DNA of 64,000 nt from an uncultured virus (IMG/VR IMGVR_UViG_3300048580_000163) (IMGVR_UViG_3300048580_000163:1-64000), one strand, 5' to 3'; positions 1 to 20,965 are shown, numbered from the stretch's first letter. The notes: generated by a model not told the origin, from the letters alone. Numbers and translations are program-made.

Positions 1-638
1 ACGTGGTTTTGTATTCTTTGTACTGCTTTATCGTAGTACTCTTTATCCAATTCACAACAAGTCAATTCAAATCCGTAATCGTGGCAAGCTATTGCAATAC
101 TTCCTGAACCTAAATGTGTGTCAAGTATTTTATCGTTTTCTTTAGCGTATTTATCTAACAACCATTTGTAAAGTGCTACTGGTTTTTGTGTTGGGTGTAT
201 TCTTGTTTCTTTATTACTCATATCGTGCTGAATCATTCCGTGCCAAGATATATTTACAAAGTCTAATTTATTTAACCAACTAACCCAAGCTAATTCTCCT
301 GTGCTATAAGTAGGCATTGTTACATTCTTATGCCAATAAATCATTCCGCCAACTAAACCAAAATAATTAGCACCCCAAACAATCTGTTTTTTTGATACTC
401 TTTTTAATTCATCAAAATATTCATCTGTGGGAATATCTGAATCCCATAATTGAGAACCGTATTTTTTAGATTTTGTTGCTGATTTTTTAGTTTGCATTTT
501 ATCTGTACTATTTTTAACATCTGCATCAATTCCATAAGGTGGGTCTACAATAGCTAAATCAAAATAGTTATCAGGATAACGTGACATCAAAAGCATATTG
601 TCCTCGTTCGTTATTGTTATTTTATCTGTTATTTGCAT
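1..638 (-). CDS. DNA N6/N4 methyltransferase (beta class), 3' end runs off window
   Basis: Manual translation from ATG at 638: MQITDKITITNEDNM...IVDPPYG...HPTQKP...DTHLGSGSIAIAC; absent from ORF track because no stop in window. Confidence 0.9.
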   Translation of the reverse strand, partial: MQITDKITITNEDNMLLMSRYPDNYFDLAIVDPPYGIDADVKNSTDKMQTKKSATKSKKYGSQLWDSDIPTDEYFDELKRVSKKQIVWGANYFGLVGGMIYWHKNVTMPTYSTGELAWVSWLNKLDFVNISWHGMIQHDMSNKETRIHPTQKPVALYKWLLDKYAKENDKILDTHLGSGSIAIACHDYGFELTCCELDKEYYDKAVQRIQNH

Positions 639-737
639 TTAATATTTTTTTATATAGTTCGTTTACCGATTCTTTATTGCAACCTCTTTTATAGTAGAAA
701 TTAATTACTCTTTTAATTCTTTGTAGGTTTGTTTGTT

Positions 738-947
738 TCATAATCTATTTTTAATATGTTCTACAATTTTTTTAGCCTCTCCTTCTTTTAACGGAATATT
801 AAATAAGCTATTGTGGTAAGTCTCTAAAATTTCAATAGCGTAATCGTCTGCTATTTGTTCGCATTGTTTTGCGTATCTTCCAGCCTCTCCATCTGTATTA
901 ATACTTACTTTAGGTTTAAACTTTTCTCTTAATGTCATAACGTACAT
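738..947 (-). CDS. Small phage protein with EQIADDYAI module
   Basis: ORF track; module shared with 5371..5592 and 58507..58752. Confidence 0.6.
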   Translation of the reverse strand: MYVMTLREKFKPKVSINTDGEAGRYAKQCEQIADDYAIEILETYHNSLFNIPLKEGEAKKIVEHIKNRL

Positions 948-1066
948 GTTTATTTTTTATGTGATTCATTTCTTTTGTTTTCTCTAAAACTTCTTTAGCT
1001 TTTAAAGTAGTTTCTTTTTGAATTTCGTAGGATGTAGGGATTCGCTTTCCTACTAAAACTATGCTT

Positions 1067-1333
1067 TTACGCTTGGATAATTTCGACATTAATCTTGTAA
1101 TTTAATTTTTTACACGCTTTTTGCAAAGTTTCAAACGAACAAACTACTTGATTATTTAAAATATGGTTTAAATGTGAGTAGCTGATTTCTGTTTCTCGAG
1201 CAAATTCTCTTTGGCTTATTCCTTCTTTTTTGAAGATTTCTAATAATTGTTTTGTAGTCGGAATTTTTGATAATTCGCCAACCATTTGTAAAGAACAAAT
1301 TAAATCTTGTGAGTAAAAGCTTTTGTAATCCAC
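1067..1333 (-). CDS. XRE-type HTH DNA-binding protein (start possibly 1285)
   Basis: GISQREFARETEISYSHLNHILNN...ETLQKAC pattern. Confidence 0.8.
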   Translation of the reverse strand: MDYKSFYSQDLICSLQMVGELSKIPTTKQLLEIFKKEGISQREFARETEISYSHLNHILNNQVVCSFETLQKACKKLNYKINVEIIQA

Positions 1334-1539
1334 ATTGAAGCATTTTCAATATCTGTCATTGCTAATGATTTCAATCTTCCGTGTTCACTTCCATTTTGTT
1401 CAAGAGCATCAATTCTATTTATGACTTTTGCAAGTTCATATTTCAACTTTAAATGCTCACTACATTCATTGGTCAAGATGTCATCAAAATTAATTCTCAA
1501 TCTTTTTTCTCCTAACGATAATTCTCTTTTTAATTCCAT
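1300..1539 (-). CDS. Putative Acb2/Tad1-like helical-hairpin nucleotide sponge (anti-defence)
   Basis: LGEKRLRINF...RLKSLAMTDIENASMWITKAFT resembles the Acb2-like hairpin; paralog at 17206..17448. Confidence 0.55.
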   Translation of the reverse strand: MELKRELSLGEKRLRINFDDILTNECSEHLKLKYELAKVINRIDALEQNGSEHGRLKSLAMTDIENASMWITKAFTHKI

Positions 1540-1547
1540 AATATTTA

Positions 1548-1578
1548 TAGCATTTTACCTTTCAATCGGGTTTTAATT
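1548..1578 (-). promoter_or_regulatory. Conserved 31-nt leader motif, copy 1
   Basis: AATTAAAACCCGATTGAAAGGTAAAATGCTA, 8 nt before ATG; 27/31 identical to 17457..17487. Confidence 0.7.
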
Positions 1579-1709
1579 TTCATCTTTAAAAAACATTAAT
1601 ACTTTGTGAGTTTTTGCACAATAAACATAAGTTCCAAATCCTCGTGAGCCAAAGCCATAATCAAAATATACTCTTTGTCCTAACATAATTTATATTTAAA
1701 AGCACCATC

Positions 1710-1845
1710 GCACAACAGCGTGTTTATTCAATTGTGGCATAAGGTTTAATTCAATGTTCATTTTGTACTCTTGTTTTCTTTTTGCTTAATCGAAAGGCTA
1801 TTGTGTGTCACACCACGCTGAAATTATAGCGGGCAAACGTTATAT
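1710..1845 (+). repeat. attC-like site 1 (degenerate/chimeric arms)
   Basis: GCACAAC-A ... CAAAC-GTTATAT; inner arms pair only partly. Confidence 0.65.
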
Positions 1846-1851
1846 AATAGC

Positions 1852-2118
1852 TTACTCAACTAACTGCTCAAAGTTATCTTTGAAATATTGTTCAGAAACT
1901 AACCACTGGTCAAAGTGGTTTTTAGGGTTTCTTGAAATCATATCTCCAATTTTAGGACTTCCGTTGTTTTTATCTGCATCAGAAATAGATACATTATAAC
2001 CAAATGGGTATTCAGATATATGAATAAATCCGTGATTATTAAACACATTAATATCTACTTCTGTTACTTCTCTCATTTCTGCAATTTGACTTCTTCTGAA
2101 TTGTTTAAAATTTTTCAT
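1852..2118 (-). CDS. Cassette A cargo: small phage protein (start 2118 or 2154)
   Basis: MKNFKQFRRSQIAEMR...GSPKIGDMISRNPKNHFDQWLV; stop abuts the cassette arm. Confidence 0.75.
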   Translation of the reverse strand: MKNFKQFRRSQIAEMREVTEVDINVFNNHGFIHISEYPFGYNVSISDADKNNGSPKIGDMISRNPKNHFDQWLVSEQYFKDNFEQLVE

Positions 2119-2142
2119 AATATTTGTGAATATAAAGCCATC

Positions 2143-2274
2143 ATATAACAGCATATTACCGATATGGCTTGGCTTTGGTTAATCCGAAATGTGTCGGCTC
2201 ACTTTTTGTTTGTTGTTTATTTGTTTTCGTATGTGTTTAAATACGCCACATCGTTAATATGCGGAACGTTAGCA
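2143..2274 (+). repeat. attC-like site 2
   Basis: ATATAAC-A-GCATATTACCGATATGGC ... GCCACATCGTTAATATGC-GGAAC-GTTAGCA. Confidence 0.85.
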
Positions 2275-2445
2275 AACAGTTTGTTTGTATTGTCCGCAAT
2301 TCAAACAACCGTATGTGCTACATCTGTGTACCTCACATTCAATAAATTTTCTGTTAAGCAAACAAACCGATTTGCTAACATCAGGTATATGCAATTTTTG
2401 CTTTCTACCTGTAAATAATTCTTCTAATTTTCTAAGTGTTATCAT
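2269..2445 (-). CDS. Cassette B cargo: 58-aa Cys-rich protein starting inside site 3
   Basis: Manual translation MITLRKLEELFTGRKQKLHIPDVSKSVCLLNRKFIECEVHRCSTYGCLNCGQYKQTVC; stop is the TTA of GTTA. Confidence 0.65.
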   Translation of the reverse strand: MITLRKLEELFTGRKQKLHIPDVSKSVCLLNRKFIECEVHRCSTYGCLNCGQYKQTVC

Positions 2446-2493
2446 TTTATTTAATTTTAGTTTAAAACTGCATATACCTGAGTGCCGTTAGCA
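2373..2493 (+). repeat. attC-like site 3
   Basis: TGCTAAC-A-TCAGGTATATGCAATTTT ... AAAACTGCATATACCTGA-GTGCC-GTTAGCA. Confidence 0.85.
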
Positions 2494-2499
2494 GTAATA

Positions 2500-3483
2500 C
2501 TACATTCCATCTCCGAATGAAGTTACTACGTTAAATTCTTTTTCTTTTCTTTTTTCTTCCACCCTCTTTAAAGAAATATTAAAATACTTTTTGGTATTAT
2601 CTATTCCAATAAAGTTTCGGTTTAAATTTATACAAGCAATTCCACTTGAACAACTACCCATTGTGTTATCTAATACAATTTCATTCTCGTTTGAGTATGT
2701 CTTTATCAAAAATTCCATCAACGGTATAGGTTTTTGAGTTGGATGTAAGCCATTTTCTCTGTTATACCTCAATATGCTTTTTGGATAACCTGTTTTGTCT
2801 TGTATGTATGTTTCTCTTTTACTCTCACTTGATAAATGTCCAAGTGTTCCTGCTTTACCTTTGTTTGATAAAATCAATTCAGTATCATCAAGTTTAAGGT
2901 TATATGTAATTTTTTTTACAGTTGAAAGTATTTCATTGTACTTATTTTCAATTCCAAATAAATCACATATTTTAGTCCATTGTTTTTCAGTTGGTAATTG
3001 GGAACCATTCATTTTATTTGTAACCCAACCTGTCATTCCACCTGTTCTTGAAAGTTCTAATTTAGAAACATCAATTTGTTTCAAGTTAAGTCGTTTCATA
3101 TTTTCAATCATAATATCAGCAAACTCCATATTCGGTGTTTCATTATAAAATACTGATATGGTTTCGTGTATTTTCAATGGTTGATAATTTACTAATTGAA
3201 AGTTCCCTGCATTGTTCTTTTCCCAAATCCAATCATATTTATACCAATCTAAATTAGAAGTTCGCAATAATGATGAAAATGGTTCTGAACCAAATAAAAC
3301 AATCACACCTTTATCTTTAATAATTCTTTCATATTGTTCCCAAAGTTTATCAAAAGGTATAATTATATCCCAAACACAAGAAGTCGTACCATAAGGCAAA
3401 TCACAGCAAATAAAGTCAATACTTTTATCAGGTATTAATTTCATTTGTTCTATTGTATCTCCGTATCTTAAATCTATTGTCAT
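2500..3483 (-). CDS. Cassette C cargo: DNA N6/N4 methyltransferase with inserted HTH-like domain
   Basis: DLPY motif IV, HPTQKP, DNTMGS motif I; helical insert at about aa 119-181. Confidence 0.9.
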   Translation of the reverse strand: MTIDLRYGDTIEQMKLIPDKSIDFICCDLPYGTTSCVWDIIIPFDKLWEQYERIIKDKGVIVLFGSEPFSSLLRTSNLDWYKYDWIWEKNNAGNFQLVNYQPLKIHETISVFYNETPNMEFADIMIENMKRLNLKQIDVSKLELSRTGGMTGWVTNKMNGSQLPTEKQWTKICDLFGIENKYNEILSTVKKITYNLKLDDTELILSNKGKAGTLGHLSSESKRETYIQDKTGYPKSILRYNRENGLHPTQKPIPLMEFLIKTYSNENEIVLDNTMGSCSSGIACINLNRNFIGIDNTKKYFNISLKRVEEKRKEKEFNVVTSFGDGM

Positions 3484-3574
3484 AATTTTATTTTAATATT
3501 TTTCCACCGCACAAAAAAGAAAAGAAAAAGGTTTCGTTCTTCGATTGAGTATTTGTGGTTTAAATCCGTACTAC

Positions 3575-3668
3575 TGCTAACAGCGTATATAAGAAATGGC
3601 ACAGAAACATTTGTTATTAATTTCAACATTCTGCAAGTACCACTTCTCATATACACAAAACGTTATAA
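3575..3668 (+). repeat. attC-like site 4
   Basis: TGCTAAC-A-GCGTATATAAGAAATGGCAC ... GTACCACTTCTCATATACAC-AAAAC-GTTATAA. Confidence 0.85.
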
Positions 3669-3675
3669 GAAATAG

Positions 3676-3897
3676 CTACGATTCGTTTTTATAATCAGGT
3701 TTAAACTTTTTATTATAATAAATATCTGCATCACAGTTATTTTCAAACCCATCATTAAAAGCTTCTGTTATTTGAATCATTTCCATTTCTTTGGCTTTGT
3801 TTACAATATGTATATTATATTTTGGATGAAATTCATATCCATTTTTATTTTGATTTTCAATATAATCTTCTAACCATTCTACTGCTGTTTGTTTCAT
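3676..3897 (-). CDS. Cassette D cargo: MKQTAVEWL-type small protein
   Basis: ORF track; paralog of 4010..4243. Confidence 0.7.
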   Translation of the reverse strand: MKQTAVEWLEDYIENQNKNGYEFHPKYNIHIVNKAKEMEMIQITEAFNDGFENNCDADIYYNKKFKPDYKNES

Positions 3898-4009
3898 CTT
3901 ATTTGTTAAATGTTTTTTTAATTGTTATTGTAATTCCACCATGATATAAAAAAGCCCAAGCCAATACTATCAATGCAAACCCTGCTAATGCTAAAAATAA
4001 ATCCATATC

Positions 4010-4243
4010 TTATTTCTTTTTAAATTTTGACATAATCTCATCAAACTTTTTACCACTTTGAGGGTTTGGATTGCCAATATTATCAAGAGTCCAATTAACT
4101 ATTTCGTTGGCAATCAATTCCACCTCCACGTCGCTAAATCCTTTTTGTTCCTTTTCCATTTCTTTGGCTTGTTCAAAATCATATTGATTTAAACTTATGT
4201 TGTTCTTGTACCTGAATTCTAACCATTCTACTGCTGTTTTCAT
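4010..4243 (-). CDS. Cassette D cargo: MKTAVEWL-type small protein
   Basis: ORF track; shares TAVEWLE and AKEME motifs with 3676..3897. Confidence 0.7.
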   Translation of the reverse strand: MKTAVEWLEFRYKNNISLNQYDFEQAKEMEKEQKGFSDVEVELIANEIVNWTLDNIGNPNPQSGKKFDEIMSKFKKK

Positions 4244-4246
4244 TTC

Positions 4247-5374
4247 TTATTTATTTTTAAATTTTTCTAAAAAATATTTTGCCGTTTCTTTTGAAACAGA
4301 ACCTTCTTGATTAAATTCTTCATACATAGATAAAAATTGAATTAAGTCAATTATTTCTTCCTCACTATACATTTTATTGTCTTGTTCTTGTTGCCATTTA
4401 GCACCTGCTTCAATACCTTCTAAATATTCAGTAGTGCAAGTTCCATAGTAAGGTTGAGAATTAATAAACTCTTCAAGTGTTTCTTGTTTAGGTTCTTCTT
4501 TTGGAATATAATCTTTTCCCAGCCAAACTGTAACTTTTTTACCATCAATAAAATCTTCGTGAAAATACTCTTGGTGTTCTTCATGAAACATTACTTCTTG
4601 ATTATTTGGATTTACAGACTTTTCCAAACTTTGTGTAAATTTTCTATTGAAATAATCATCTTCATCTGTTGCGTATGGAAATATAGTTTCTTCATCAAAT
4701 CTACCTTGTGAATATGCTTCTTTTATATTATCTTCTTCCTTTTGTAACCAAAAAGAAATATCCTCTTTTTTAAAAATAGTTTTTACAGAATTTAAACTTC
4801 TATTATTTACTAATTCAATTAATTCCATAACTAAACTATTACCATAATCTCTTGCTTTTTGTTTAGTTTCTTTTGATGTTTCAGACATTATTCTCTCTTT
4901 AGTTGATTGTTTTACTTCTTCTTTTGGAATGATGATGTCATACATATTTTCGTAATAACTTGGTTCATCATCCACGAATCCCGCTATTAATGATTCAATA
5001 TCAACAAACTCACAAGTAGGATTCTTAACAAACCATTCTAAAAACTCATCATCAATAGCTTGTACACCATCTTTTATTAAGTCTTGGTCTGTTGTTAAGA
5101 TGATTTTTTCACAAGCATTTAATACTTCAGTAACTCCATCTTGAAATCTAATTATACCTATATTTGATTTAATTTCTACTACTTTATGGACTAATTCTTC
5201 AGAACATAAACACCAATCTCCATCTTTAATTTCTTCATCATTAGTAATGTAGATGTTTTGATACTGTTCTTCATCCTGAATAGGTAATATTTCTTTACAT
5301 AAATGAAATTTGTTAGTAAAGAATTTAACTAACCTACTTGGTTGAGGTGTTGGTAATATGTATATGTTTTTCAT
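4247..5374 (-). CDS. Cassette D cargo: mosaic acidic hypothetical protein
   Basis: 375-aa ORF with recurrent IPKEE modules. Confidence 0.75.
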   Translation of the reverse strand: MKNIYILPTPQPSRLVKFFTNKFHLCKEILPIQDEEQYQNIYITNDEEIKDGDWCLCSEELVHKVVEIKSNIGIIRFQDGVTEVLNACEKIILTTDQDLIKDGVQAIDDEFLEWFVKNPTCEFVDIESLIAGFVDDEPSYYENMYDIIIPKEEVKQSTKERIMSETSKETKQKARDYGNSLVMELIELVNNRSLNSVKTIFKKEDISFWLQKEEDNIKEAYSQGRFDEETIFPYATDEDDYFNRKFTQSLEKSVNPNNQEVMFHEEHQEYFHEDFIDGKKVTVWLGKDYIPKEEPKQETLEEFINSQPYYGTCTTEYLEGIEAGAKWQQEQDNKMYSEEEIIDLIQFLSMYEEFNQEGSVSKETAKYFLEKFKNK

Positions 5375-5592
5375 AATTCTTTTTTAAATATTTCTAATAG
5401 TTCTTTTGAAGTTTTGCCGATATATTTTTTATCCATTATTGAACTTTTACTAATGTACCAATTTAAAAAATCAATAGCGTAATCGTCTGCTATTTGTTCT
5501 AATTCTATTGCTGTATCTAAATCTATATTTAAAGTTGCAGTTGTGTTTTTTTGACTTATTTTAAGTCTTTCAAACTCTTCTTTTAATTTCAT
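5371..5592 (-). CDS. Cassette D cargo: EQIADDYAI-module protein
   Basis: ORF track; ATGA overlap with next gene. Confidence 0.7.
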   Translation of the reverse strand: MKLKEEFERLKISQKNTTATLNIDLDTAIELEQIADDYAIDFLNWYISKSSIMDKKYIGKTSKELLEIFKKEL

Positions 5593-5621
5593 AATATTTA
5601 GTTTTAATTACCCGCTACTTC

Positions 5622-5699
5622 TTATAACAGGTGTTTGTAAATACCAGCCGAAAATAAAATGCGTGTAGGCTGGCATCTACAAGCACCGAAACGTTATTT
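5622..5699 (+). repeat. attC-like site 5 (right end of array)
   Basis: TTATAAC-A-GGTGTTTGTAAATACCAGCC ... GGCTGGCATCTACAAGCACC-GAAAC-GTTATTT. Confidence 0.85.
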
Positions 5700-5861
5700 C
5701 AATTGACTACTTATTAGTTCATAGTAAGCATCACTCTCATTCCAATCCTTTATAAGTGATTGCTTTATTACTTCAAGTCTACCAACTAAAAAAGTATTCT
5801 CTAATTGTTCTGCAATATACATTAGTTTATCTAATTCTGCAATAATTTCTACTTTATTCAT
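5694..5861 (-). CDS. 55-aa hypothetical protein whose stop codon lies in the array junction
   Basis: Manual translation MNKVEIIAELDKLMY...YYELISSQLK; TAA is the TTA of GTTA at 5693. Confidence 0.65.
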   Translation of the reverse strand: MNKVEIIAELDKLMYIAEQLENTFLVGRLEVIKQSLIKDWNESDAYYELISSQLK

Positions 5862-5864
5862 ATT

Positions 5865-6050
5865 TTAAAATAATTTATCATACATTTCTTCCTTTAACTC
5901 AATACAATCTACTTCATTCATTATTGATAATATATCTGTACCATTGTAATAAACTGAATTAAGCACTATCTCTGGTCTTAACTCTGGATCATCATCTATA
6001 GTTTTGTAGTATACATTAACTATTTCACCTCTGTATTTAAAGTGTTCCAT
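5865..6050 (-). CDS. Hypothetical protein
   Basis: ORF track, packed in early operon. Confidence 0.6.
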   Translation of the reverse strand: MEHFKYRGEIVNVYYKTIDDDPELRPEIVLNSVYYNGTDILSIMNEVDCIELKEEMYDKLF

Positions 6051-6245
6051 ATCTTATTTATCTTTAAATTGTCTTAAGGTATTTCTTTAGTTGTTTAATG
6101 CTCAGGAATTCAAATCTAATATCTTCTGTCTCATACAATACAAAGCCACTGCCATCTGAGAATAGTTGTATCATATTAATATCTCCACTCACTTTATTTA
6201 ATTTCTCTAATTTTTTAAGTATTTTTTTCATCTTATTTATCTTCT

Positions 6246-6593
6246 TTAAATTAATTTAGCTACTTCTTCTACACTTACAATAGTGTACCCTTGATTCTCT
6301 GCCATCTTTCTCCAGTAATTCTTAGCCTTAATATCTAAAGCCTCGCAAATATCTGTAACACCATCGAATACAATCTCCTTGCCTTTAGGAGATAATACAG
6401 TAATCATCTTAGATACCCTACTACTCTTACCTACTAAATCTTTTGGTCTTGTCTTATTGTTAACCCTTACATACTCAACACCTTCAAAATCATCTTGAGT
6501 AAATTTATTGTAGTCCTTGTAGTTTAGTTTGTTTAGGTGGTGATTCCTTAATATCTTAGCCACCTCAAATAATGTGAATTTCTTTACTTCCAT
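6246..6593 (-). CDS. Hypothetical protein, possible NUMOD1-like C-terminus
   Basis: KEIVFDGVTDICEALDIK. Confidence 0.55.
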   Translation of the reverse strand: MEVKKFTLFEVAKILRNHHLNKLNYKDYNKFTQDDFEGVEYVRVNNKTRPKDLVGKSSRVSKMITVLSPKGKEIVFDGVTDICEALDIKAKNYWRKMAENQGYTIVSVEEVAKLI

Positions 6594-6614
6594 TTTACGT
6601 TATTATTTTGTTTC

Positions 6615-6818
6615 TTAAATTACTTCCCAATCGCCATTTATTATATGGCAATTTTTAAATCTACCTAAGGATAGTTTCCCCTTATCATTAAGGAAGGTAA
6701 AGCCGTACTGATTATTCCATATAACATCGTACGCCTTACCTCTTGTTATAATACCCTTAACTATTTGGTTTCGTATATCTATAGTACACCTAACCTTCTT
6801 CATCTTCTTCAAACTCAC
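6615..6818 (-). CDS. Hypothetical SH3-like small protein
   Basis: KVRC...ITRGKAYDVI...NDKG. Confidence 0.55.
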   Translation of the reverse strand: MSLKKMKKVRCTIDIRNQIVKGIITRGKAYDVIWNNQYGFTFLNDKGKLSLGRFKNCHIINGDWEVI

Positions 6819-7211
6819 AATGCTCTAAGCAGTCTGCACAAAGTTCATTAAATATGTGGTGTCTACCTGCACCACAGCAATTACTATATTCTTCCATATC
6901 TTATCTCTATTTAGCGCCTCTCACTCTCATTAGTTTAAGACTTCGTTTAAATCTACGTTATATATTACACTTGCTTGTAGTGTTAAGGATTCTAAATCAA
7001 GGCAGAGAAGTTCAAACCAAGTATTATCACTCGGTTCAAACAATCTCATTTGCCAAAATTCATCTACTCTATTTACTACTATTAATCTTTGGTGGTTTGT
7101 CCTTACCATACATTATTTTTCTAATGGTTATTAATCCGAATAACGACTCCTTACGCCCTATCTTATTGTTCTTATCATCAAAGATTGTTGTCTCTCTTAT
7201 AAGTAATTGTA

Positions 7212-7940
7212 TCATACAGTCTCGACTTCATTCTCTATGACCTCCATATCAGCATCTATAAGACCATCTAAGCGTTTTAATATAGTTTCTGAGGTATACA
7301 CTACACTTGAATCCCAATAGTCCTCCATAGAGTCTATATATCCTTCCCTTAAATCATCTTCAACCTCACTTGAATCTCTGTATTCTTGTAAGTATTCGTG
7401 AATACCACCACTATATTCTGCGGTCTTAAATAACTTTGCATCTGTATAGCCGCCTCTAGCATCAGCACCATTGTGTATTTGAATTAAGTAGTAGGTATCT
7501 CCATCAATTTCAAGTCTACTGCCTTGTAATATCTGTGATAGATCTGAGTCTCCATTGTATGTATTGAAGGTGTACTCTACATTAACCTCGTAATTATTTT
7601 GTAGCCACTCGGCTGCTCTATTTGATACGCCATATATAGACTCTCCAGGAAGTTCACCTTCCCAATCTGCTGGATTATTGTTACGTCTATTAAACTTCTC
7701 GCATACATCATCTAATTCAAGACCACATAAGTAATGGAATACAGATACGTTTCTGTATATATCATTGTACTTCATATCGAATTGGTATGATTCTTCATGC
7801 TCATTCATAAAGTCCTTGATTGATTTCTTTTGGTTACGTTGCCAACCTCTACCATTTACACCTCCTGAGTCTAAGAAGTGAGTGCCTGTGTTTTGAGTTA
7901 ATAAGTTATAAACCAATCTTTGTACTGCATTTGTTTTCAT
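7212..7940 (-). CDS. Acidic early protein
   Basis: 242 aa; HFLDSGG and QIHNGADARGGYT motifs. Confidence 0.7.
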   Translation of the reverse strand: MKTNAVQRLVYNLLTQNTGTHFLDSGGVNGRGWQRNQKKSIKDFMNEHEESYQFDMKYNDIYRNVSVFHYLCGLELDDVCEKFNRRNNNPADWEGELPGESIYGVSNRAAEWLQNNYEVNVEYTFNTYNGDSDLSQILQGSRLEIDGDTYYLIQIHNGADARGGYTDAKLFKTAEYSGGIHEYLQEYRDSSEVEDDLREGYIDSMEDYWDSSVVYTSETILKRLDGLIDADMEVIENEVETV

Positions 7941-7972
7941 AATTGTATAAGTTTTAAAGTTATTATTTTAAT

Positions 7973-8584
7973 TTAGTATATGTTTCCATCTTCTGTGAAT
8001 TCGTATTGATTTGATTCAAGTGACTCTAATATATACTCATCTGATGTTAGGTGAGTATATTCTTTTTCTAATGTACTATATAAATCAGCACACAAGTCCA
8101 CATATAACTCCTCTACAAAATTCTCGAAGTCATTTGAAAAACTTTCTATCCATTGATATAGTGGTCTATCCCAATTCAAGTCTCCGTTATCTACTTCCCA
8201 CCATATAGTATGATCACAACTTTTTTCGTGGTAGTAAAGTCCACGTTGTACCCCTTTACCAGATACTGATACGTTATTTCTAAGCCACCCTTTACGCATT
8301 GGTGATAAGTCAAGACCATCTATAAATATATCTTTAAGCCTATCTGAAATTGATGTGTATTTAAACATAGCTCCATCGCCTTGACTCCAAAAACCACTGA
8401 AGTATATTTTACCTATACCGAAATACTCATCGTTGCGTTCCTTGAAGTCTTCATATATAAAATCCCACCAATCAAAATTTACATTTGTATCTCTGTATTT
8501 CTCTATAACCTTCTCAAGTAATTCTTTGTCGTTCTTTATATCATCTATTGAATATACTTTTACTTCTTCTATTGCTGTTCTCAT
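7973..8584 (-). CDS. Acidic early protein
   Basis: 203 aa; FSGFWSQGDGA and acidic C-terminus. Confidence 0.7.
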   Translation of the reverse strand: MRTAIEEVKVYSIDDIKNDKELLEKVIEKYRDTNVNFDWWDFIYEDFKERNDEYFGIGKIYFSGFWSQGDGAMFKYTSISDRLKDIFIDGLDLSPMRKGWLRNNVSVSGKGVQRGLYYHEKSCDHTIWWEVDNGDLNWDRPLYQWIESFSNDFENFVEELYVDLCADLYSTLEKEYTHLTSDEYILESLESNQYEFTEDGNIY

Positions 8585-13158: not shown

Positions 13159-13803
13159 ATGTCTATAGATACAAATACAAGATTCTTAGGTGTAGATTCC
13201 TCTAAGGTTGATTTAAGCGAGAAGAAGGATAGGGTTAATAACGCTAAAACAGAATATTACTCACTACAAGATATTTATGGTTATATAAATCCATTAGTAG
13301 GTTTATTCTCTCAAACAACAAGTAGCACTCCAATAGCAAATACAGCTACAGAGGGTAGTTTAATTGGTAGTGGTGTTGGATCATTATCTGTTCCTGCAAA
13401 TGCATTTAAGGTTGGTGATTCATATCACGCAAAGTTAATTGGTCATATATCTTGTAATTCAGCTGCTACATTAAAATTAAATATTAAGGCAGGCTCTGTA
13501 ATACTTGCTGATACAGGTATAATAGATTTAGATACCATAAGTAATAGGCATTGGGAAATCAATGTTTACTTTACAATTAGGGCGATTGGTAGTGCAGGTA
13601 CAGCATCTATTGCTTCTGGTGGTATTTTCTCATACACAAAGAACTCTGGATTAAATTTTGAAGGAACTAACTTTAGTATTGTTAATGATGACACATTTGA
13701 TACAACAGTTAGTAATGCATTGAATGTAACTGCTCAATGGGGTTCAGCAAATGCGGCAGACTCAATTTATTCAGAGATATTTACATTAAGTAAAACATTT
13801 TAA
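13159..13803 (+). CDS. Virion decoration/fibre protein, FLGVD family 1
   Basis: Shared N-terminal RFLGVD..DL.EKK...EYY.L.D; S/T/G-rich. Confidence 0.65.
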   Translation: MSIDTNTRFLGVDSSKVDLSEKKDRVNNAKTEYYSLQDIYGYINPLVGLFSQTTSSTPIANTATEGSLIGSGVGSLSVPANAFKVGDSYHAKLIGHISCNSAATLKLNIKAGSVILADTGIIDLDTISNRHWEINVYFTIRAIGSAGTASIASGGIFSYTKNSGLNFEGTNFSIVNDDTFDTTVSNALNVTAQWGSANAADSIYSEIFTLSKTF

Positions 13804-13817
13804 AAAAAATATAACAA

Positions 13818-14792
13818 ATGGCAACAATTCCAAGTGGAACAAAATTTTTAGGTGTAGACCCTACGTTTACAGACCTAACAGAAAAGAAAGGAAGTAAGGT
13901 AGATAGAAAATCAGAATACTTTACATTAGAGGATATTACAGATGCAGTTGGTACAGGTTCTCAAGGACCAGAAGGACCAGAAGGACCAGCAGGACCTCCA
14001 GGACCAGTAGGACCAGCAGGATTAGAATGGAGAGGAGCTTGGAATACAAATACATCATACGCAGTAGACGATGCAGTTGGTTTTAATGGATCTTCTTGGT
14101 TCTGTATTTCGGCAGTTACAGGTACAGGAAACTCTAACCCAGAAATAGCTACAACAAAATGGGCTTTATTAGCTTCTCAAGGAGCGCAAGGTATTCAAGG
14201 TATTCAAGGACCAATTGGACCTCAAGGAGCTTCTGGTTCAATCGTTAGTACCATAGGTGCAGTAGGAACTAGTTCTTCAACTCCTTACAATGTTTTAGAA
14301 TATGATATAAATACAGTTTCTGGAAGTCCTGGAGGATATGTTAGATTACCTTCAAACCCAGTAATTGGAAAGATTATAACTGTTACTTCAAATGGATTAA
14401 GTCCTTTAAACATTAAAGCTTATGACAATGGAACTACTATAAGTTTTAATCAGTCAAATAGCTATCAATCTACATATCAACTAGATTCATACGATACTGT
14501 TAAGTTTATATACAGGGGTTCTGATTATTGGATGGCAGAAATTATTTCAGGAACAAATATTACTTACAATGGTAAAAAGGTAGGAGCTGGTTTTGGATAT
14601 ACAATTACAGATTCTATTTCTAATCCGACACTTGTAGCTTTAAGCGCTAGTGATTTGAATACAACGTACCCTAACTCTCAATATCCAGTAGGTACAAAAA
14701 TAATGTGCTTTAATATATCTGGAGGTGGTATAATGTACATAAAGAGAGCAACAACAGCTTGGATATCAATGCCAATAACCACAGTTTCGTAA
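13818..14792 (+). CDS. Collagen-containing fibre protein, FLGVD family 2
   Basis: Gly-X-Y repeats; WRGAWN..Y..DDAV module. Confidence 0.75.
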   Translation: MATIPSGTKFLGVDPTFTDLTEKKGSKVDRKSEYFTLEDITDAVGTGSQGPEGPEGPAGPPGPVGPAGLEWRGAWNTNTSYAVDDAVGFNGSSWFCISAVTGTGNSNPEIATTKWALLASQGAQGIQGIQGPIGPQGASGSIVSTIGAVGTSSSTPYNVLEYDINTVSGSPGGYVRLPSNPVIGKIITVTSNGLSPLNIKAYDNGTTISFNQSNSYQSTYQLDSYDTVKFIYRGSDYWMAEIISGTNITYNGKKVGAGFGYTITDSISNPTLVALSASDLNTTYPNSQYPVGTKIMCFNISGGGIMYIKRATTAWISMPITTVS

Positions 14793-14814
14793 TAATTAAT
14801 AAATAAGATAAAAA

Positions 14815-15105
14815 ATGTCAAGCACAATTAAATTTTTAGGTGTAGATTCAACATTAGTTGATCTTACAGAAAGAAAAGATTCAGTTAACAATAGTAAGAC
14901 TGAATATTATTCTTTAAATGATTTACAAGCATTAGTAGTTAACACAACTACATCTGCATTATCATTAGCAACATTAAACTCAACTTACGCAACAAATCCT
15001 ATTGGAACAAGAGTTGTATGTAGAAGTATTTCTGCTGGCGGTTTAGTTTACACAAAAACAGCAGCTACTGCTTGGGTAAGTCAAAGCGTTACTGCGGTAT
15101 CTTAG
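14815..15105 (+). CDS. Short decoration protein, FLGVD family 3
   Basis: Shared N- and C-terminal modules. Confidence 0.65.
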   Translation: MSSTIKFLGVDSTLVDLTERKDSVNNSKTEYYSLNDLQALVVNTTTSALSLATLNSTYATNPIGTRVVCRSISAGGLVYTKTAATAWVSQSVTAVS

Positions 15106-15132
15106 GTTAAATTACTTAATCAGATTACAATT

Positions 15133-15164
15133 AAAAGACCATTCATTTTGTTTGGTCTTTTTTT
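15133..15164 (+). terminator. Intrinsic terminator
   Basis: AAAAGACCA/TGGTCTTTT plus T-run. Confidence 0.7.
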
Positions 15165-15190
15165 ATTACTTTTGTGAAAAGATTTAACTT

Positions 15191-15517
15191 ATGATTGAAA
15201 GATTTATAGAGGATTTTAACTCACAGATAAAGAGACCAAATGTATTTTTATTCTCATTACTATTAGCAAATAAATTCAAGGGAGAAATATTGGTTAATTT
15301 TCAATCTGATGATTCTATGCCTGACGTAGTGGTCTTGATAGGAACAGATTTCTACGATATGTTTGGCAAAATAGACGATAACATAATTAATGTTGATGAT
15401 TATACAATTTTAGATAGACTTAATCTATTATATAATGCGAGATTTTATAATTATGCAAAATGGTCGTTTGTGTACGAAGAGAATGACGATGAAATGTACT
15501 TTAATGATGTAAATTAG
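15191..15517 (+). CDS. Hypothetical protein
   Basis: ORF after TACTTTTG at 15167. Confidence 0.6.
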   Translation: MIERFIEDFNSQIKRPNVFLFSLLLANKFKGEILVNFQSDDSMPDVVVLIGTDFYDMFGKIDDNIINVDDYTILDRLNLLYNARFYNYAKWSFVYEENDDEMYFNDVN

Positions 15518-15519
15518 AT

Positions 15520-15873
15520 ATGGTAGATAATAACAACATAACAGTAAGTTTTGATTTTGACGCAACATTGTCATTACCGTCAGTACAAGAATACGCTAAG
15601 GAGTTAATTGAAGTCGGATATAATATAATTGTAACCACAACAAGACATAGCAAATATCTTAATCAAGACTTAATAAAGGTAACTGATAAACTTGGTATAA
15701 ACAAAATTGTTTACACTGATGGAGACAAGAAACAGCATTATATGGAAGGTGTAGATATACACTTTGATAATGATGAAACAGAGCTAAGAGAAATAAGTAG
15801 AAGTACATACACAGAAGTAATTAACGTAACAGACAATCAATGGAAAGCAACAGCCCAGAATTTACTGCAATAA
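15520..15873 (+). CDS. HAD-superfamily phosphatase-like protein
   Basis: SFDFDATL, VTTTR, K, HFDND. Confidence 0.75.
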   Translation: MVDNNNITVSFDFDATLSLPSVQEYAKELIEVGYNIIVTTTRHSKYLNQDLIKVTDKLGINKIVYTDGDKKQHYMEGVDIHFDNDETELREISRSTYTEVINVTDNQWKATAQNLLQ

Positions 15874-17744: not shown

Positions 17745-19306
17745 TAGTTACTTCTTTTATGTGTTATTGTGGTATTGGTTAATAAAACTGTTGTAGCTAC
17801 ACTTGCAGCATTCTCTAAGGCTAACCTAATAACCTTTGAAGGATCTATAATTCCTTTCTCAAACATATCTACAATTTCGTAATCCTTAACATCATATCCG
17901 TAGTTATCTTTTTGTGCTAATAAGTTTCCTTCAATCGAATCCAACTTAACCCCTGCATTACTTAAAATAGTGCGCATAGGAGCTTGAATTGACTCAAGTA
18001 GACACTTATATCCTTTTGATACAGGAACGAGCTTTAAAGAGGCGTTATATAGCGCTAAACCTCCTCCTACAACTACACCTTCAGATATCGCACTCTTAAC
18101 CGCATTGATTGCGTCATCTACTCTATCAATCTTCTCCTTAATTTCTACTTCAGTTGTTCCTCCGACTTTAATTACAGAAACACCACAAGCTAACTTTGAA
18201 ATACGGTCTCTTAAGTATTCCTTTTCTAAATTGTTGTTTGAGTTCTTGATTACTTTATTCAGCTCTTCAATCTTTGATTGAACCCTATCTGCATTAGGTT
18301 TCTCGTTAAAGAATAATACAGTGTCATCTTTAGTTACAGTCAATCTACTACATTTACCAAGCAATTCATTCATATCATACCCTTCAATGTTTGTAGAGGT
18401 ATCTAAATCAATAATTAAACCACCTGTAGCTAAAGAAATATCTGTCAAGTAATCTCTGCGCTTCTCACCTATACTTGGCGGTATAATTGTAGCCACTTTA
18501 AGACCGTTCTTTTTATTAGCATATAACACCTTCATAACCTCAAACTCCATTTCAGATATGATAAGTAGCTCTTTCTTTGCGTGGTGACAAAACTCTATAA
18601 CAGGTAGTAATTCTGTAATATTCTGAAACCTTCTGTTAGATAGTAAGATAAATGGGTTGTTATTAAACTCAATTGATCTATTCTCTGGTTTATTTACAAA
18701 CCCCTCAAATTCATATCCTCTTGCGATTGGCATACCGTCAATAAAGTCCAAATAGGTTTCTGAACTTTCTGATTGCTCGTAAGATACAACACCATTCTTT
18801 CCAGCAGATATAAAGGCTTTTGCAATTATTTCTCCTAATTCAGAATCATTATTTGCAGATATTCTTGCAACATCAAATAAATAAGAATCATCAACTTCTT
18901 TAGATGTACTCTTGATATAATCAACAACTTCTTTTACAGCAAAGTCAATACCATTCTTTAAATCGATTGCTGATTCACCTTTCTTTAAATACTTCTGGCT
19001 ATTGTCGATAATTGCCTTTGTAAGTACAGCTGTGCCAGTTGTACCGTCACCTGCTTCATTGACTGTTTTTCTACAAGCTTGCTTTACAAATTCACAGCCT
19101 AAACTTTCTGTTGCATCTTCAAGGAAAATACTTTCCGCTACTGATACACCATCCTTTGTTACGATTGGTAGTCCTCCTGGACTCTCAATTAATACTGTTC
19201 TACCTCTATATCCCATAGTTGTAGCAACCGCATCACAAACCGTTGAGATACCTTTAATTAAAGGCTCTTTTGCTTCTTGATTAAATTTAACTTCTTTTAT
19301 AACCAT
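17744..19306 (-). CDS. groEL: Chaperonin GroEL
   Basis: TKDGVSVA, AGDGTT, GVVVGGG, GIIDP. Confidence 0.97.
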   Translation of the reverse strand: MVIKEVKFNQEAKEPLIKGISTVCDAVATTMGYRGRTVLIESPGGLPIVTKDGVSVAESIFLEDATESLGCEFVKQACRKTVNEAGDGTTGTAVLTKAIIDNSQKYLKKGESAIDLKNGIDFAVKEVVDYIKSTSKEVDDSYLFDVARISANNDSELGEIIAKAFISAGKNGVVSYEQSESSETYLDFIDGMPIARGYEFEGFVNKPENRSIEFNNNPFILLSNRRFQNITELLPVIEFCHHAKKELLIISEMEFEVMKVLYANKKNGLKVATIIPPSIGEKRRDYLTDISLATGGLIIDLDTSTNIEGYDMNELLGKCSRLTVTKDDTVLFFNEKPNADRVQSKIEELNKVIKNSNNNLEKEYLRDRISKLACGVSVIKVGGTTEVEIKEKIDRVDDAINAVKSAISEGVVVGGGLALYNASLKLVPVSKGYKCLLESIQAPMRTILSNAGVKLDSIEGNLLAQKDNYGYDVKDYEIVDMFEKGIIDPSKVIRLALENAASVATTVLLTNTTITHKRSN

Positions 19307-19329
19307 AATAAATTTGATTTTTTATATTG

Positions 19330-19361
19330 CAAATATACACTTTTTTTATTTCGTATCTTTG
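19330..19361. promoter_or_regulatory. Back-to-back divergent -7 promoters
   Basis: TATATTTG (minus, 19330-19337) and TATCTTTG (plus, 19354-19361). Confidence 0.7.
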
Positions 19362-19392
19362 CAGAGATTTATTAAAAATATTATAATTAACT

Positions 19393-19665
19393 ATGCTAAA
19401 GGTAAATAAGTCTGAGATGAAATGTAATGTTGCAAAACGTACACCATCTCACCCTAAGAAAAGTCATATAGTAAAGGCTTGCGAAGGAGGGAAAGAGAAG
19501 ATAATTAGATTTGGAGAGCAAGGAGCTAAGACAGCAGGAAAACCTAAAGCAGGAGAAAGCGATAAGATGAAGAAGAAAAGAGCTTCATTTAAAGCAAGAC
19601 ACGGAAAGAATATAGCGAAAGGAAAAATGTCTGCTGCATATTGGGCTGACAAAGAAAAATGGTAA
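19393..19665 (+). CDS. Small basic virion-associated protein
   Basis: KIIRFGEQG...SFKARH...SAAYWA. Confidence 0.7.
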   Translation: MLKVNKSEMKCNVAKRTPSHPKKSHIVKACEGGKEKIIRFGEQGAKTAGKPKAGESDKMKKKRASFKARHGKNIAKGKMSAAYWADKEKW

Positions 19666-19691
19666 ATAATAACTTAAAAATATAAAATAAA

Positions 19692-19958
19692 ATGTCATAT
19701 CAAAAATTACAAGCAAATAGAGCTGCTGCTGTAACACCAAGTAATACAGCTAATATTCCATCATTATCTTCAGAAGCAGGAACACCGAATAGAGGCTGTG
19801 TGCTTTACGTTGGTACGAAAGGTAATTTAAAAGTATTGACTGTCGGAGGAGATGAAGTAACTTTTACAAACTTCCAAGATGGTAGTTTCTTACCAGTGCA
19901 GGTAGTTAGGGTTTATTCAACAGGAACAACAGCATCTAACATCATAGCTCTTTGGTAA
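19692..19958 (+). CDS. Head-spike base-like protein
   Basis: AAAVTPS, LYVGTKGNL, LPVQVVRV.STGT resemble the Rcc01079-type family. Confidence 0.6.
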   Translation: MSYQKLQANRAAAVTPSNTANIPSLSSEAGTPNRGCVLYVGTKGNLKVLTVGGDEVTFTNFQDGSFLPVQVVRVYSTGTTASNIIALW

Positions 19959-19959
19959 T

Positions 19960-20760: not shown

Positions 20761-20761
20761 T

Positions 20762-20965
20762 ATGATAGTTTTACATCCAAATACAGAACAATACAATGCT
20801 TTAAATGGTTACACAAATGGTGTTTGCAGGTTAGAGTTTATAAAAGATGGGGCAGATAAATGGTTTATAGGTCTTGACGCACTTACATACGAACCATTTC
20901 AGCCAATTCACGACCAATTAAATGAGTTAGAAAGGATTGAATATACGCCTTGTATAGATGAGTAG
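20762..20965 (+). CDS. Hypothetical protein
   Basis: ORF track. Confidence 0.6.
   Translation: MIVLHPNTEQYNALNGYTNGVCRLEFIKDGADKWFIGLDALTYEPFQPIHDQLNELERIEYTPCIDE

Follow-up and report, generated by a model that had tools for sequence, protein, structure and literature searches.

In IS200/IS605 and REP/RAYT systems, single-strand DNA hairpins are recognised by their structure; the enzymes are of the HUH Y1 type, and the hairpins lie at element ends or stand as solitary REPs. In T4-type phages, homologous recombination is guided by PeSL elements, which are short conserved linkers. For integrons, the insert of the integrase IntI is called essential for integron function in the available part of one source (PMC8138268), and IntegronFinder reports almost no integrons in Bacteroidetes, according to the available part of another (PMC9024848). 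In 2023, Qi et al. filed an array in Polaribacter phage P12002L as a CALIN, regarding its sites as standard attC with divergent directions; a separate architecture, recombinase or bacterial counterpart was not described (PMC9892861).

Here we analysed a stretch of 64,000 nucleotides from an uncultured virus, hereafter the window, in which four hairpin sites occur between positions 2,143 and 5,699. They are very probably the attC-equivalent recombination sites of an integron-like cassette system of Bacteroidia, present here in a virulent-type Flavobacterium podophage. The system is widespread and apparently undescribed, with a site shape and a recombinase unlike those of classical integrons.

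A preliminary description had ordered each site as AAC, a single A, stem, loop, return arm, 5-nt spacer and GTT, and all four sites follow this order at the places it gave. The uninterrupted stems of 18-20 base pairs hold with respect to bulges, which are absent from the stems of 18, 18, 20 and 20 positions, but sites 1-4 contain 2, 1, 4 and 3 non-Watson-Crick positions, respectively. Most mismatches were rightly called A/C, since eight of the ten non-standard positions are A/C when read on the + strand and hence G.T on the minus strand, the remaining two being one T.G and one true mismatch. The four A/C positions assigned to site 4, however, belong to site 3; site 4 has two A/C and one T.G. 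All four window sites share A/C at stem position 14, the outer boxes TAAC and GTTA, and a central spacer of 1 nt (A) versus 5 nt. The outer boxes and the A after AAC are each invariant (34/34) in a phage-site alignment that by design leaves out the window sites, together with sites of spacing (2,5) or (1,4). Across the phage family, 8 of 34 sites carry 1-3 extra nucleotides between stem positions 12 and 13. A hairpin nearly the same as that of site 3 lies upstream of a 90%-identical methyltransferase in viral locus L013.

The window was searched with a covariance model, R1, made from 34 sites of other phages and zero window sites. The search returned exactly the four window sites, all on the + strand, with E values from 6e-13 to 9e-10; beyond them, the best R1 match in the 64 kb reached only E 1.8, and the four-site pattern is more than chance. 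Degenerate site 0, whose GTT forms the left boundary of cassette 1, was not detected by R1 and has no significant fold (Table 1). The plain TAAC...GTTA pattern was not enriched (46 matches versus 57 expected), and thus the signal lies in the structure rather than in the motif. The earlier observation that pairing is kept between differing stems extended to the larger alignment: among 34 phage sites, 88.1% of the cells were paired, versus 59.7% after shuffling and 29-36% with the partners slid, and the double-sided changes amounted to 176 versus 50, a count as high in 0 of 500 shuffles. The corresponding values for 34 bacterial sites were 86.7% and 60.3%. Covariation in both the phage and the bacterial sets argues that the site structure is under selection. 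Position 14 was without a standard pair in 29/29 and 34/34 cells of the phage and bacterial sets, respectively, and the presumed strand marks of the family are the A/C at this position and, often, T.G at position 5.

Table 1 Sites and cassettes of the array in the window
Feature	Position	Strand	Description
Degenerate site 0	~1713-1841	+	Starts AAC-A-GCGTG, ends CAAAC-GTT (GTT 1839-1841)
Site 1	2147-2270	+	AAC-A, 18-position stem, 76-nt loop, GGAAC, GTT; R1 66.6 bits, E 1.3e-12
Site 2	2377-2489	+	AAC-A, 18-position stem, 65-nt loop, GTGCC, GTT; R1 55.6 bits, E 3.9e-10
Site 3	3579-3664	+	AAC-A, 20-position stem with four A/C positions, AAAAC, GTT; R1 68.1 bits, E 6.1e-13
Site 4	5626-5695	+	AAC-A, 20-position stem, 18-nt loop, GAAAC, GTT; R1 53.9 bits, E 9.4e-10
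Cassette 1	1840-2268	+	88-aa ORF 1852-2118 (minus), function unassigned, and site 1; bounds between G and TT
Cassette 2	2269-2487	+	58-aa Cys-rich ORF 2269-2445 (minus) and site 2
Cassette 3	2488-3662	+	N6/N4 DNA methyltransferase 2500-3483 (minus) and site 3
Cassette 4	3663-5693	+	Minus-strand ORFs 3676-3897, 4010-4243, 4247-5374 and 5371-5592, and site 4

The predicted strand bias was borne out when both strands were folded. The minus strand was the more stable in all four window sites, with -14.7, -18.9, -13.1 and -14.1 kcal/mol for sites 1-4, versus -9.7, -15.2, -7.8 and -12.9 kcal/mol for the plus strand. The minus-strand z-scores were -1.6, -4.6 (-4.59), -3.8 and -3.8; site 1 is weak alone because its 76-nt loop dilutes the signal. 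In a larger set of 77 sites, the model-antisense strand gave the more stable fold in 68, by 2.24 kcal/mol on average. Counting against the recombination-site reading, 20 of 34 phage sites retain a C.A mismatch at position 5 on their better-folding strand.

A strand bias would also arise if the hairpins acted as RNA within the phage transcript, for example as RNase III processing sites, attenuators or modules for translation start, with the G.U bias coming from minus-strand genes. In the window phage, all cassette genes have the better-folding strand as their sense strand, and some loops supply the start codon, as in the methyltransferase gp014 of mymlan6-1 and in window ORF 2269-2445, whose ATG lies inside the loop of site 2 and which ends on the TTA of site 1's GTTA as its stop codon. 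We nevertheless regard this reading as improbable. Phage cassettes are antisense and bacterial cassettes sense with respect to the site (25 of 26 bacterial intervals), yet the A/C at position 14 is kept in 34/34 bacterial sites, and the bias therefore follows the DNA site, not the transcript. An RNA function also leaves unexplained the homology breaks between G and TT, the cassette-level box complementarity and the cassette relocation described below. Rfam yielded zero families over the whole window at gathering scores, and merely two chance snoRNA matches (E 4-5) in 2100-5750. Since no T-run follows the hairpins on the sense strand, a reading as terminators was dropped. As recombination sites, the hairpins may have an additional role in expression.

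By comparison with related genomes, the four sites are seen to be cassette boundaries in a variable stretch of a Flavobacterium phage. Site 4 is the right end of the array, and its TTA is the stop codon of a backbone gene (5694-5861, minus strand). Homology to Elemovirus genomes is recorded from 5690. At the junction of G and TTA in site 4, the relative reads ...AAC-T-TTATTTCAATTG and the window reads ...AAC-G-TTATTTCAATTG, so that the homology starts directly after the G. The methyltransferase module common to the window and mymlan6-1 (Muminvirus) extends from C-GTT to AAC-A, with 84.5% identity over window positions 2486-3582. The own R'' box pairs with the cassette start over at least 7 nt, mostly exactly 10, in 21 of 23 cassettes, whereas the same pairing inside one single site was found in just 4 of 23. 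In the window, this complementarity is 7 nt for cassette 1 (the 7 nt after the G of degenerate site 0 and the R'' box of site 1) and 9, 10 and 10 nt for the ends of cassettes 2, 3 and 4. The cassette 3 methyltransferase matched PF01555 (4.8e-24) and PHROG 67. Zero Pfam or PHROG families matched the ORFs of cassettes 1 and 2, and those of cassette 4 had no Pfam match and only one weak PHROG match, to a function-unknown family.

Three Lillamyvirus genomes, lillamy9-1, 9-6 and 9-7, are 98.4-100% identical outside a few events: an interior cassette of 439 bp was relocated to first place in the array, one cassette was replaced and one was deleted. All of the event junctions fall inside GTTA(T), and head insertion is visible in lillamy9-7. 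These differences indicate that cassettes moved recently between near-identical phages. The comparative evidence supports an exchange between G and TT at the resolution of the shared GTTA(T), with the window/Elemovirus junction placing the exchange after the G. Counting against a simple scheme, the methyltransferase gene common to the window and mymlan6-1 has a different hairpin in each phage, which a strict unit of gene plus own site does not predict. In addition, the same hairpin is followed by CAAAC or ATAC between lillamy9-1 and 9-6, unexpected if the exchange always occurs between G and TT. Site orientation is fixed: across 79 viral loci, 66 sites were antisense to the methyltransferase gene and 7 were in sense. 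When metagenome contigs of four runs were compared with window positions 1-8000, a whole-cassette skip at GTT was found in 0 of the 15 joints listed (137 in total). Several short metagenome contigs have an end at 2489-2491 or 3660, which hints at branching there only weakly at best.

Mobility of the hairpins themselves, as miniature inverted repeats or hairpins moved by an IS200/IS605-type transposase, or their service as PeSL-like linkers guiding homologous recombination, is an explanation to which we give almost no credence. Inverted repeats common to Flavobacterium genomes and phages are catalogued as MITEs in the available part of PMC11602168 and may include sites of this kind, and TnpB genes lie inside one large phage array. 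Nevertheless, the stems differ in sequence while the pairing stays, and the hairpins therefore do not represent copies of a single element; a gene travels together with one hairpin, and the hairpin does not travel alone; and the junctions have only 4-5 nt in common. Furthermore, no TnpA-type gene accompanies the window array among the PHROG and Pfam matches, and the bacterial elements are linked to a tyrosine recombinase.

This bacterial counterpart emerged from a survey of 151 sampled Bacteroidia genomes (21 candidates scored per genome; many assemblies incomplete), 106 of which contained R1 matches. Bacterial arrays extend up to ~93 kb and begin beside an Xer-like recombinase, which lies at the model-5' end on the same strand in G009:C43, G140 (two arrays), G119, G160 and G055, as well as in a named plasmid of Chryseobacterium sp. 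SNU WT5. Sites were present in 67 of 75 recombinase-positive versus 39 of 76 recombinase-negative genomes (odds ratio 7.9, p 3e-7), and in 66 of 74 positive genomes when the unpublished G106 was left out (p 3e-7). The 39 negative genomes with sites and the 8 positive ones without them speak against strict linkage; the adjacency at the array heads and the association across genomes nonetheless show that sites and recombinase are linked in bacteria.

The array recombinase (P0001) has the tyrosine-recombinase core: it matches PF00589 at 1e-39, and all 4 aligned homologues have identical residues near HxLRH and the C-terminal Y. Against the integron-integrase model TIGR02249 it scored 223.1 bits, below the cut-off of 265, in two separate stretches, and in the IntI insert region only 18 of its residues face 60 chain residues of VchIntIA (2a3v). 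The short, insert-less form is common to the four homologues, as is a conserved N-terminal extension of ~100 aa. The protein aligns end to end with XerA-type proteins (PDB 4a8e, 5hxy; E 3e-37), and the source annotations call it XerD or site-specific integrase. The distinct recombinase clade that had been proposed is thus supported by context, through an array-adjoining enzyme below the TIGR02249 cut-off and without the IntI insert.

On the phage side, a PF00589 tyrosine recombinase was found in 0 of 11 phage records, and the window phage is therefore CALIN-like, with sites present and the recombinase absent. No recombinase relatives were retrieved from viral contigs with a single protein and a 4-sequence alignment, the exact-word method making this weak evidence of absence. 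In G008, the sole PF00589 match is on a contig other than the phage-like one. A close DNA copy of the window cassettes was present in only 5 of 401 bacterial genomes, and the strongest match (G009:C166) is on a phage-like contig; these matches thus yielded no direct case of a cassette shared between phage and host.

On the + strand, a cassette begins with the TT of a GTT and ends with the G of the following GTT, in the order gene(s) (antisense in phages), 10-nt box ending in TAAC, one A, hairpin and 5-nt spacer. The 7 nt directly behind GTT are complementary to the box that precedes AAC in the same cassette, and excision as a circle would therefore restore a complete site, carrying a 10-bp outer helix. 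The minus (bottom) strand would fold as single-stranded DNA, with strand and polarity presumably marked by the asymmetric 1 x 5 internal loop and the fixed non-Watson-Crick positions (14 A/C, often 5 T.G). A tyrosine recombinase would cut beside the spacer, at the equivalent of the G-to-TT junction on the + strand, and the later steps of the exchange would follow those of integrons. Catalysis probably falls to the host Xer-like recombinase, a relative of IntI that lacks the IntI insert and has the extra ~100-aa N-terminal domain. Single-strand folding in vivo, the exact cut, the acting enzyme and activity during infection are all features that we infer.

We lean slightly towards a broader interpretation, in which Bacteroidia possess a second kind of integron, with its own site grammar and an insert-less Xer-like recombinase, and phages tap the host enzyme to shuffle cassettes. 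The grammar would comprise a 10-bp outer box, a 1 x 5 spacer, a long stem and fixed wobble marks instead of flipped-out bases, and the extra N-terminal domain may read the folded DNA. Phages would use the host enzyme during infection for anti-defence cassettes, methyltransferases above all, and their reverse orientation would let the hairpin lead the gene and even supply its start codon. The window would then be one phage-side outpost of the Bacteroidia system. With integrons thought nearly absent from Bacteroidetes, and the insert of their integrase regarded as indispensable for handling folded sites, a widespread insert-less cassette system would widen the integron definition and give a natural comparison for tyrosine recombinases reading folded DNA. 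It also draws attention to large cassette arrays, of up to ~93 kb, that stand unannotated in Bacteroidia genomes. For phages, it would offer a concrete mechanism by which methyltransferase genes and other accessory genes are rapidly gained, lost and reshuffled, changes that set host range among co-occurring flavobacterial phages.

Among the known systems, Xer/dif resembles this one in the end-to-end alignment of its XerA-type enzymes with the array recombinase, which differs from them in its ~100 extra N-terminal residues. Whereas dif is short, double-stranded and present once per replicon, the sites here are hairpins of 60-190 nt, with up to dozens to an array. Unlike in IS200/IS605 and REP/RAYT, no HUH Y1 enzyme is linked to the sites, and the gene cassette is the mobile unit.

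If the sites were ordinary attC served by a classical IntI, the phage array would be a plain CALIN, as Qi et al. filed that of P12002L (PMC9892861). The integron logic in common (AAC...GTT boxes, exchange between G and TT, a better-folding bottom strand, arrays) is compatible with this, and the nearest plasmid-borne homologue of the array recombinase is IntI1 (32% identity). We consider this reading very improbable, however. The spacers are 1 and 5 nt, versus 5 and 6 nt (AATTC, TCAGGC) in the classical site examined, whose inner repeats differ by one extra base; a bulged base occurs in 0/4 window sites. R1 does not find classical attC: with filters off, its best match on a class 1 integron with two such sites was 11.6 bits (E 1.7). 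The linked recombinase, as described above, is below the IntI model cut-off and insert-less. IntegronFinder reports hardly any integrons in Bacteroidetes (PMC9024848), yet R1 matched 106 of the 151 Bacteroidia genomes. On this and the R1 test on the class 1 integron, which are indirect evidence, the window sites appear unlike ordinary attC. P12002L itself resembles the window as a virulent marine-flavobacterium phage with methyltransferase genes between AAC...GTT hairpins (alike by sequence reading) and no integrase, and its methyltransferase gp38 is 70.7% DNA-identical to that of the window. Its sole site beginning AAC-A, P12002L_attC1, differs in having a bulged A and a 4-nt spacer; this site was detected by HattCI only and, of six tested, is the one without verified IntI1 recombinants (PMC9892861). 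At E 0.01, R1 detected zero P12002L sites, and a Flavobacterium phage is absent from the lists in the main text and supplementary file 1, part 1, of Qi et al. (PMC9892861).

Relative to classical integrons, the system departs in its central spacer (1 x 5 nt versus about 5 x 5 in classical sites), in its 10-bp outer box, and in the long stem of the window sites, which has fixed A/C and T.G positions instead of the L box extrahelical bases of classical attC. Its recombinase, unlike IntI, lacks the insert, has an extra N-terminal domain and is co-directional with the array. Like integrons, it has promoterless-looking cassettes in arrays, each with one folding site, and outer AAC/GTT boxes with the exchange mapped to GTT, such that the right part of a site belongs to the next cassette. 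As in integrons, too, folding favours the bottom strand, the array head is where new cassettes come in, and the long bacterial arrays adjoin one tyrosine recombinase.

A free, genome-wide scan for AAC, 0–6 nt, a stem, a loop, a return arm, 0–6 nt and GTT returned sites 1 to 4, all with spacings of 1 and 5 and in a single orientation, together with one unrelated match of different spacing near 67.2 kb. The architecture previously proposed for the sites, AAC-A, an ungapped stem-loop, 5 nt and GTT, was thereby borne out in 4/4 sites. Of the ten non-Watson-Crick stem positions, eight carry A/C on the + strand and the other two are a T.G and a true mismatch, in agreement with the preliminary description that most mismatches are A/C on the top strand; however, the four A/C positions that it assigned to site 4 belong to site 3. 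Stem position 14 is A/C in all four sites. When both strands were folded, the check that had been suggested, the minus strand, as single-stranded DNA, was the more stable in every site. Taken together, the earlier observation is confirmed with small corrections only. A small GC hairpin, CCGAAAT...TCGG, is common to the loops of site 1 and of one site in the Muminvirus phage mymlan6-1, and is followed by a T-rich run on the + strand; the two together resemble a terminator that would act on transcription in the direction opposite to the genes.

Positions of the sites, arrays and neighbouring features
Feature	Sequence	Position (strand)	Details
Site 1	window	2147-2270	stem of 18 positions, 2 non-Watson-Crick
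Site 2	window	2377-2489	stem of 18 positions, 1 non-Watson-Crick
Site 3	window	3579-3664	stem of 20 positions, 4 non-Watson-Crick
Site 4	window	5626-5695	stem of 20 positions, 3 non-Watson-Crick
Loop of site 1	window	2190-2215	GC hairpin
Loop of site 2	window	2399-2463	start codon of next gene
ORF starting in site 2 loop	window	2269-2445	
Stretch shared with mymlan6-1	window	2486-3582	84.5% identity
Cassette 4 region	window	3739-5607	high contig depth
Backbone gene at site 4	window	5694-5861	
Acb2/Tad1-domain ORF	window	1300-1539 (-)	79 aa
DNA methyltransferase gene	window	3-638 (-)	outside array
DNA methyltransferase gene	window	54481-54942 (-)	outside array
Site loop	mymlan6-1 (L002)	6171-6294	start codon of next gene
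Site loop	mymlan6-1 (L002)	6480-6530	GC hairpin
439-bp cassette	lillamy9-1	5642-6080	
439-bp cassette	lillamy9-7	2042-2480	
Spacer CAAAC	lillamy9-1 (L004)	7009-7013	
Spacer ATAC	lillamy9-6 (L005)	7009-7012	
Short site	L003	2143-2197	
TnpB genes	G008:C1 (L142)	6453-7625, 14439-15635	
Array 1	G140	4,308,701-4,401,943	P0001 homologue 500 bp beyond, same strand
Array 2	G140	16,559-55,740	another P0001 homologue at 57,693
Single-strand-binding protein gene	G140 (L159)	13702-14112	
Array	Chryseobacterium sp. SNU WT5 plasmid, 66 kb		recombinase gene, then six sites, same strand
IS110 transposase and group II intron reverse transcriptase	SNU WT5 (L168)	18284-22066	between sites

The early regions of Flavobacterium siphophages are filled with sites of this architecture, mymlan6-1 having at least 9 and the Lillamyvirus phage lillamy9-1 having 14; the architecture also occurs in many uncultivated viral contigs retrieved via the window methyltransferase, in which a strict scan (800 kb) found 66 sites antisense to the methyltransferase gene and 7 sense. 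We aligned 34 phage sites, excluding those of the window. Paired cells amounted to 88.1%, as compared with 59.7% after shuffling and 29–36% with the partners slid, and double-sided changes numbered 176 versus 50, a value reached in 0/500 shuffles. The A after AAC and a T-A pair at stem position 6 are fixed, position 5 is T.G in 20/34 sites, and position 14 forms no standard pair in 29/29. R1, the covariance model built from these 34 sites, recovered the four window sites with E values of 6e-13 to 9e-10, on the + strand only, and gave no further match in the window below E 1.8. The model-antisense strand was the more stable in 68 of 77 sites (mean 2.24 kcal/mol, Wilcoxon p = 1e-11), which fall into families and are thus not fully independent. 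Therefore, both covariation and strand bias, on which the preliminary description had staked its reading, are present in the larger sets. The short members of the family, with 12–14-bp stems (loci L014, L019, L020 and L003), have a conserved 11-nt loop, CATTAAAACGA, of which a site in Polaribacter phage P12002L carries a close variant.

The source virus record comprises 68,141 bases (31% G+C), of which the window is the first 64,000, and is 88–94% identical to Elemovirus (Flavobacterium podophages) from window position 5690 onward. Between the Erf-type region of these relatives (window genome to 65,484) and 5690, it holds ~8.3 kb versus 0.43 kb in phage elemoA_2-5C, and the four sites occupy the right-hand 3.5 kb of this variable stretch. 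Just left of the array, flanked by no site, lies a 79-aa ORF matching the Acb2/Tad1 hairpin domain (PF24729, E 8e-9, 36 bits, cut-off 27), a candidate sponge against cyclic-nucleotide defence signals. Two more DNA methyltransferase genes lie outside the array with no adjoining sites, the first of which shows ~72% DNA identity to a gene that Lillamyvirus and Muminvirus phages carry outside their arrays. The cassette 4 region has a contig depth 10–100 times that of its neighbours (up to ~2,100 versus ~10–40) in four lake-water runs; other genomes in those samples probably hold abundant related sequence.

Four concordant lines of evidence from sequence identify the sites as cassette boundaries. 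The window and its Elemovirus relative are alike from TTATTTCAATTG onward and the preceding base is T in the relative versus G in the window, indicating that homology starts directly after the G of the site 4 GTT, whose TTA is the stop codon of the backbone gene. The stretch shared with mymlan6-1 spans the C-GTT of site 2 to the AAC-A of site 3; the hairpins flanking it differ between the two phages on both sides, and the methyltransferase gene bears different hairpins in the two. An integron-type unit, ordered TT, genes, box, hairpin, G, predicts complementarity between the start of a cassette and its own box. The window, mymlan6-1 and lillamy9-1 together provided 23 cassettes, in 21 of which the sequence following GTT is complementary to the box that precedes that cassette's own AAC over at least 7 nt, mostly over exactly 10 (7, 9, 10 and 10 nt in the four window cassettes); such pairing inside one single site occurs in only 4/23.

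The near-identical isolates lillamy9-1, 9-6 and 9-7 differ in their cassettes, and their alignment provides direct, sequence-level evidence of cassette movement. The donor excision of a 439-bp cassette is exact, and its entry is at ...TTGTA-G/TTAT..., the array head. A second cassette is replaced in lillamy9-6 and a third is absent from lillamy9-7, and all of these junctions fall within GTTA(T). One hairpin has the spacer CAAAC in lillamy9-1 and ATAC in lillamy9-6 and mymlan6-1, and the change coincides exactly with the point at which the adjoining cassette differs. Exchange at G/TT only does not explain this difference, suggesting additional exchange on the AAC side or within sites. No clean cassette-skipping joint was seen among the 15 joints listed of 137 in metagenome contigs. 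In the proposed mechanism, the minus strand would fold as single-stranded DNA in vivo, and we infer the cut position, to the nucleotide, and the identity of the acting enzyme.

In the phage arrays, the longest inter-site ORF is opposite to the model strand in 22/22 intervals having one, and a hairpin thus precedes each phage gene; in bacterial arrays, the corresponding ORF shares the model strand in 25 of 26 intervals. Since the A/C marks remain with the site whichever way the genes point, RNA folding alone cannot account for the strand bias. Read in sense, a phage cassette ends ...TAA/C, and this TAA can act as a stop codon, as it does for the ORF starting in the site 2 loop and for the backbone gene at site 4. 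Long loops can supply the start codon of the next gene, at site 2 and in mymlan6-1. The ORF from the site 2 loop reads through the hairpin arm and box (GAT GTT AGC, D-V-S), and the mymlan6-1 methyltransferase gp014 retains its conserved N-terminal GDC motif only if translation starts within the site upstream of it.

PF00589 was found in 0/11 phage records (the window genome, three named isolates and seven viral contigs, several rated complete). R1 matched arrays in contigs binned with MAGs, two of which are large phages (judged by ribonucleotide reductases with inteins, an endonuclease I match and many methyltransferases). The array of a 185-kb phage-like contig, G008:C1, contains two IS605-type TnpB genes opposite in strand to the cassette genes, with no TnpA seen. 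Contig G009:C43 is bacterial: three sites (67–77 bits) separate a RloB/AAA_21 pair and T9SS-tailed proteins, and are followed by P0001, a 377-aa tyrosine recombinase, and then by housekeeping genes. Among 151 genomes sampled evenly over the class Bacteroidia, sites (R1, E 1e-5 or better) were present in 106 and a P0001 homologue (E 1e-50) in 75. Sites occurred in 67 of the 75 recombinase-positive versus 39 of the 76 negative genomes (odds ratio 7.9, p = 3e-7); with the unpublished G106 excluded, 66/74 positive genomes carry sites and p is unchanged. Genome G140 has two arrays with a recombinase gene beyond the sites, a layout repeated in G119, G160 and G055; in G140, the gene immediately upstream of an array recombinase, on the same strand, encodes a single-strand-binding protein (PF00436, 6e-40). 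TAAC-A, the 5-nt spacer and GTTA are all present in the bacterial sites too, and their position 14 forms no standard pair in 34/34. The SNU WT5 plasmid array is interrupted by an IS110, two more transposase genes and by a group II intron, an arrangement reminiscent of classical integrons, in which group IIC introns target attC sites.

The best curated family for P0001 was the integron integrase model, at 223 bits versus a cut-off of 265 and in two stretches. P0001 has 18 residues opposite 60 of the solved Vibrio integrase chain (VchIntIA, 2a3v), and aligns in one piece with XerA. Four homologues have in common the short form, the catalytic motifs and a conserved ~100-residue N-terminal domain, for which sub-threshold DUF5710/HARP matches offer a lead only. 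The family is a large one, with 5,959 cluster representatives reaching E 1e-40 among 8,000 scored, annotated at source as XerD, site-specific integrase or tyrosine recombinase, and its nearest relative on plasmids of other phyla is IntI1 (32% identity). The integrase insert is reported to be essential to integron function, yet not conserved throughout the 'integron-like' subgroup (PMC8138268), and the Xer ancestry of integron integrases is the subject of PMC4792948.

The full-text literature open without subscription gave no description of the site class, its recombinase or the bacterial arrays. Qi et al. 2023 describe a CALIN (attC cluster without integrase) with two methyltransferases in phage P12002L, in which the site starting AAC-A was predicted by HattCI only and is the one of six without verified IntI1 recombinants (PMC9892861); according to IntegronFinder 2.0, Bacteroidetes proper contain a single complete integron (PMC9024848); and a MITE census finds many inverted repeats common to Flavobacterium and its phages, drawing no integron link (PMC11602168). 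The Muminvirus/Lillamyvirus isolate paper relates varying methyltransferase content to plating efficiency; the words 'integrase', 'hairpin', 'palindrome' and 'stem-loop' are absent from it, and 'repeat' denotes repeated lab steps only (PMC7077304).

Plasmid pJF-789 carries a class 1 integron whose site after blaGES-5 shows spacers of 5 nt (AATTC), from AAC to the inner repeat, and of 6 nt (TCAGGC), ahead of GTT; the inner repeats of this site differ by one extra base. These spacers and the extra base are among the attC features listed in PMC4889954, namely R and L boxes, unpaired central spacers, extrahelical bases and a variable terminal structure. R1, with filters off, gave nothing above 11.6 bits on this plasmid. 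The earlier interpretation, a structure-recognised single-stranded DNA substrate for a distinct recombinase clade, is supported. Within the window lies a recombinase-less array of four cassettes, an outpost of an integron-like system unlike classical integrons in both site and enzyme.
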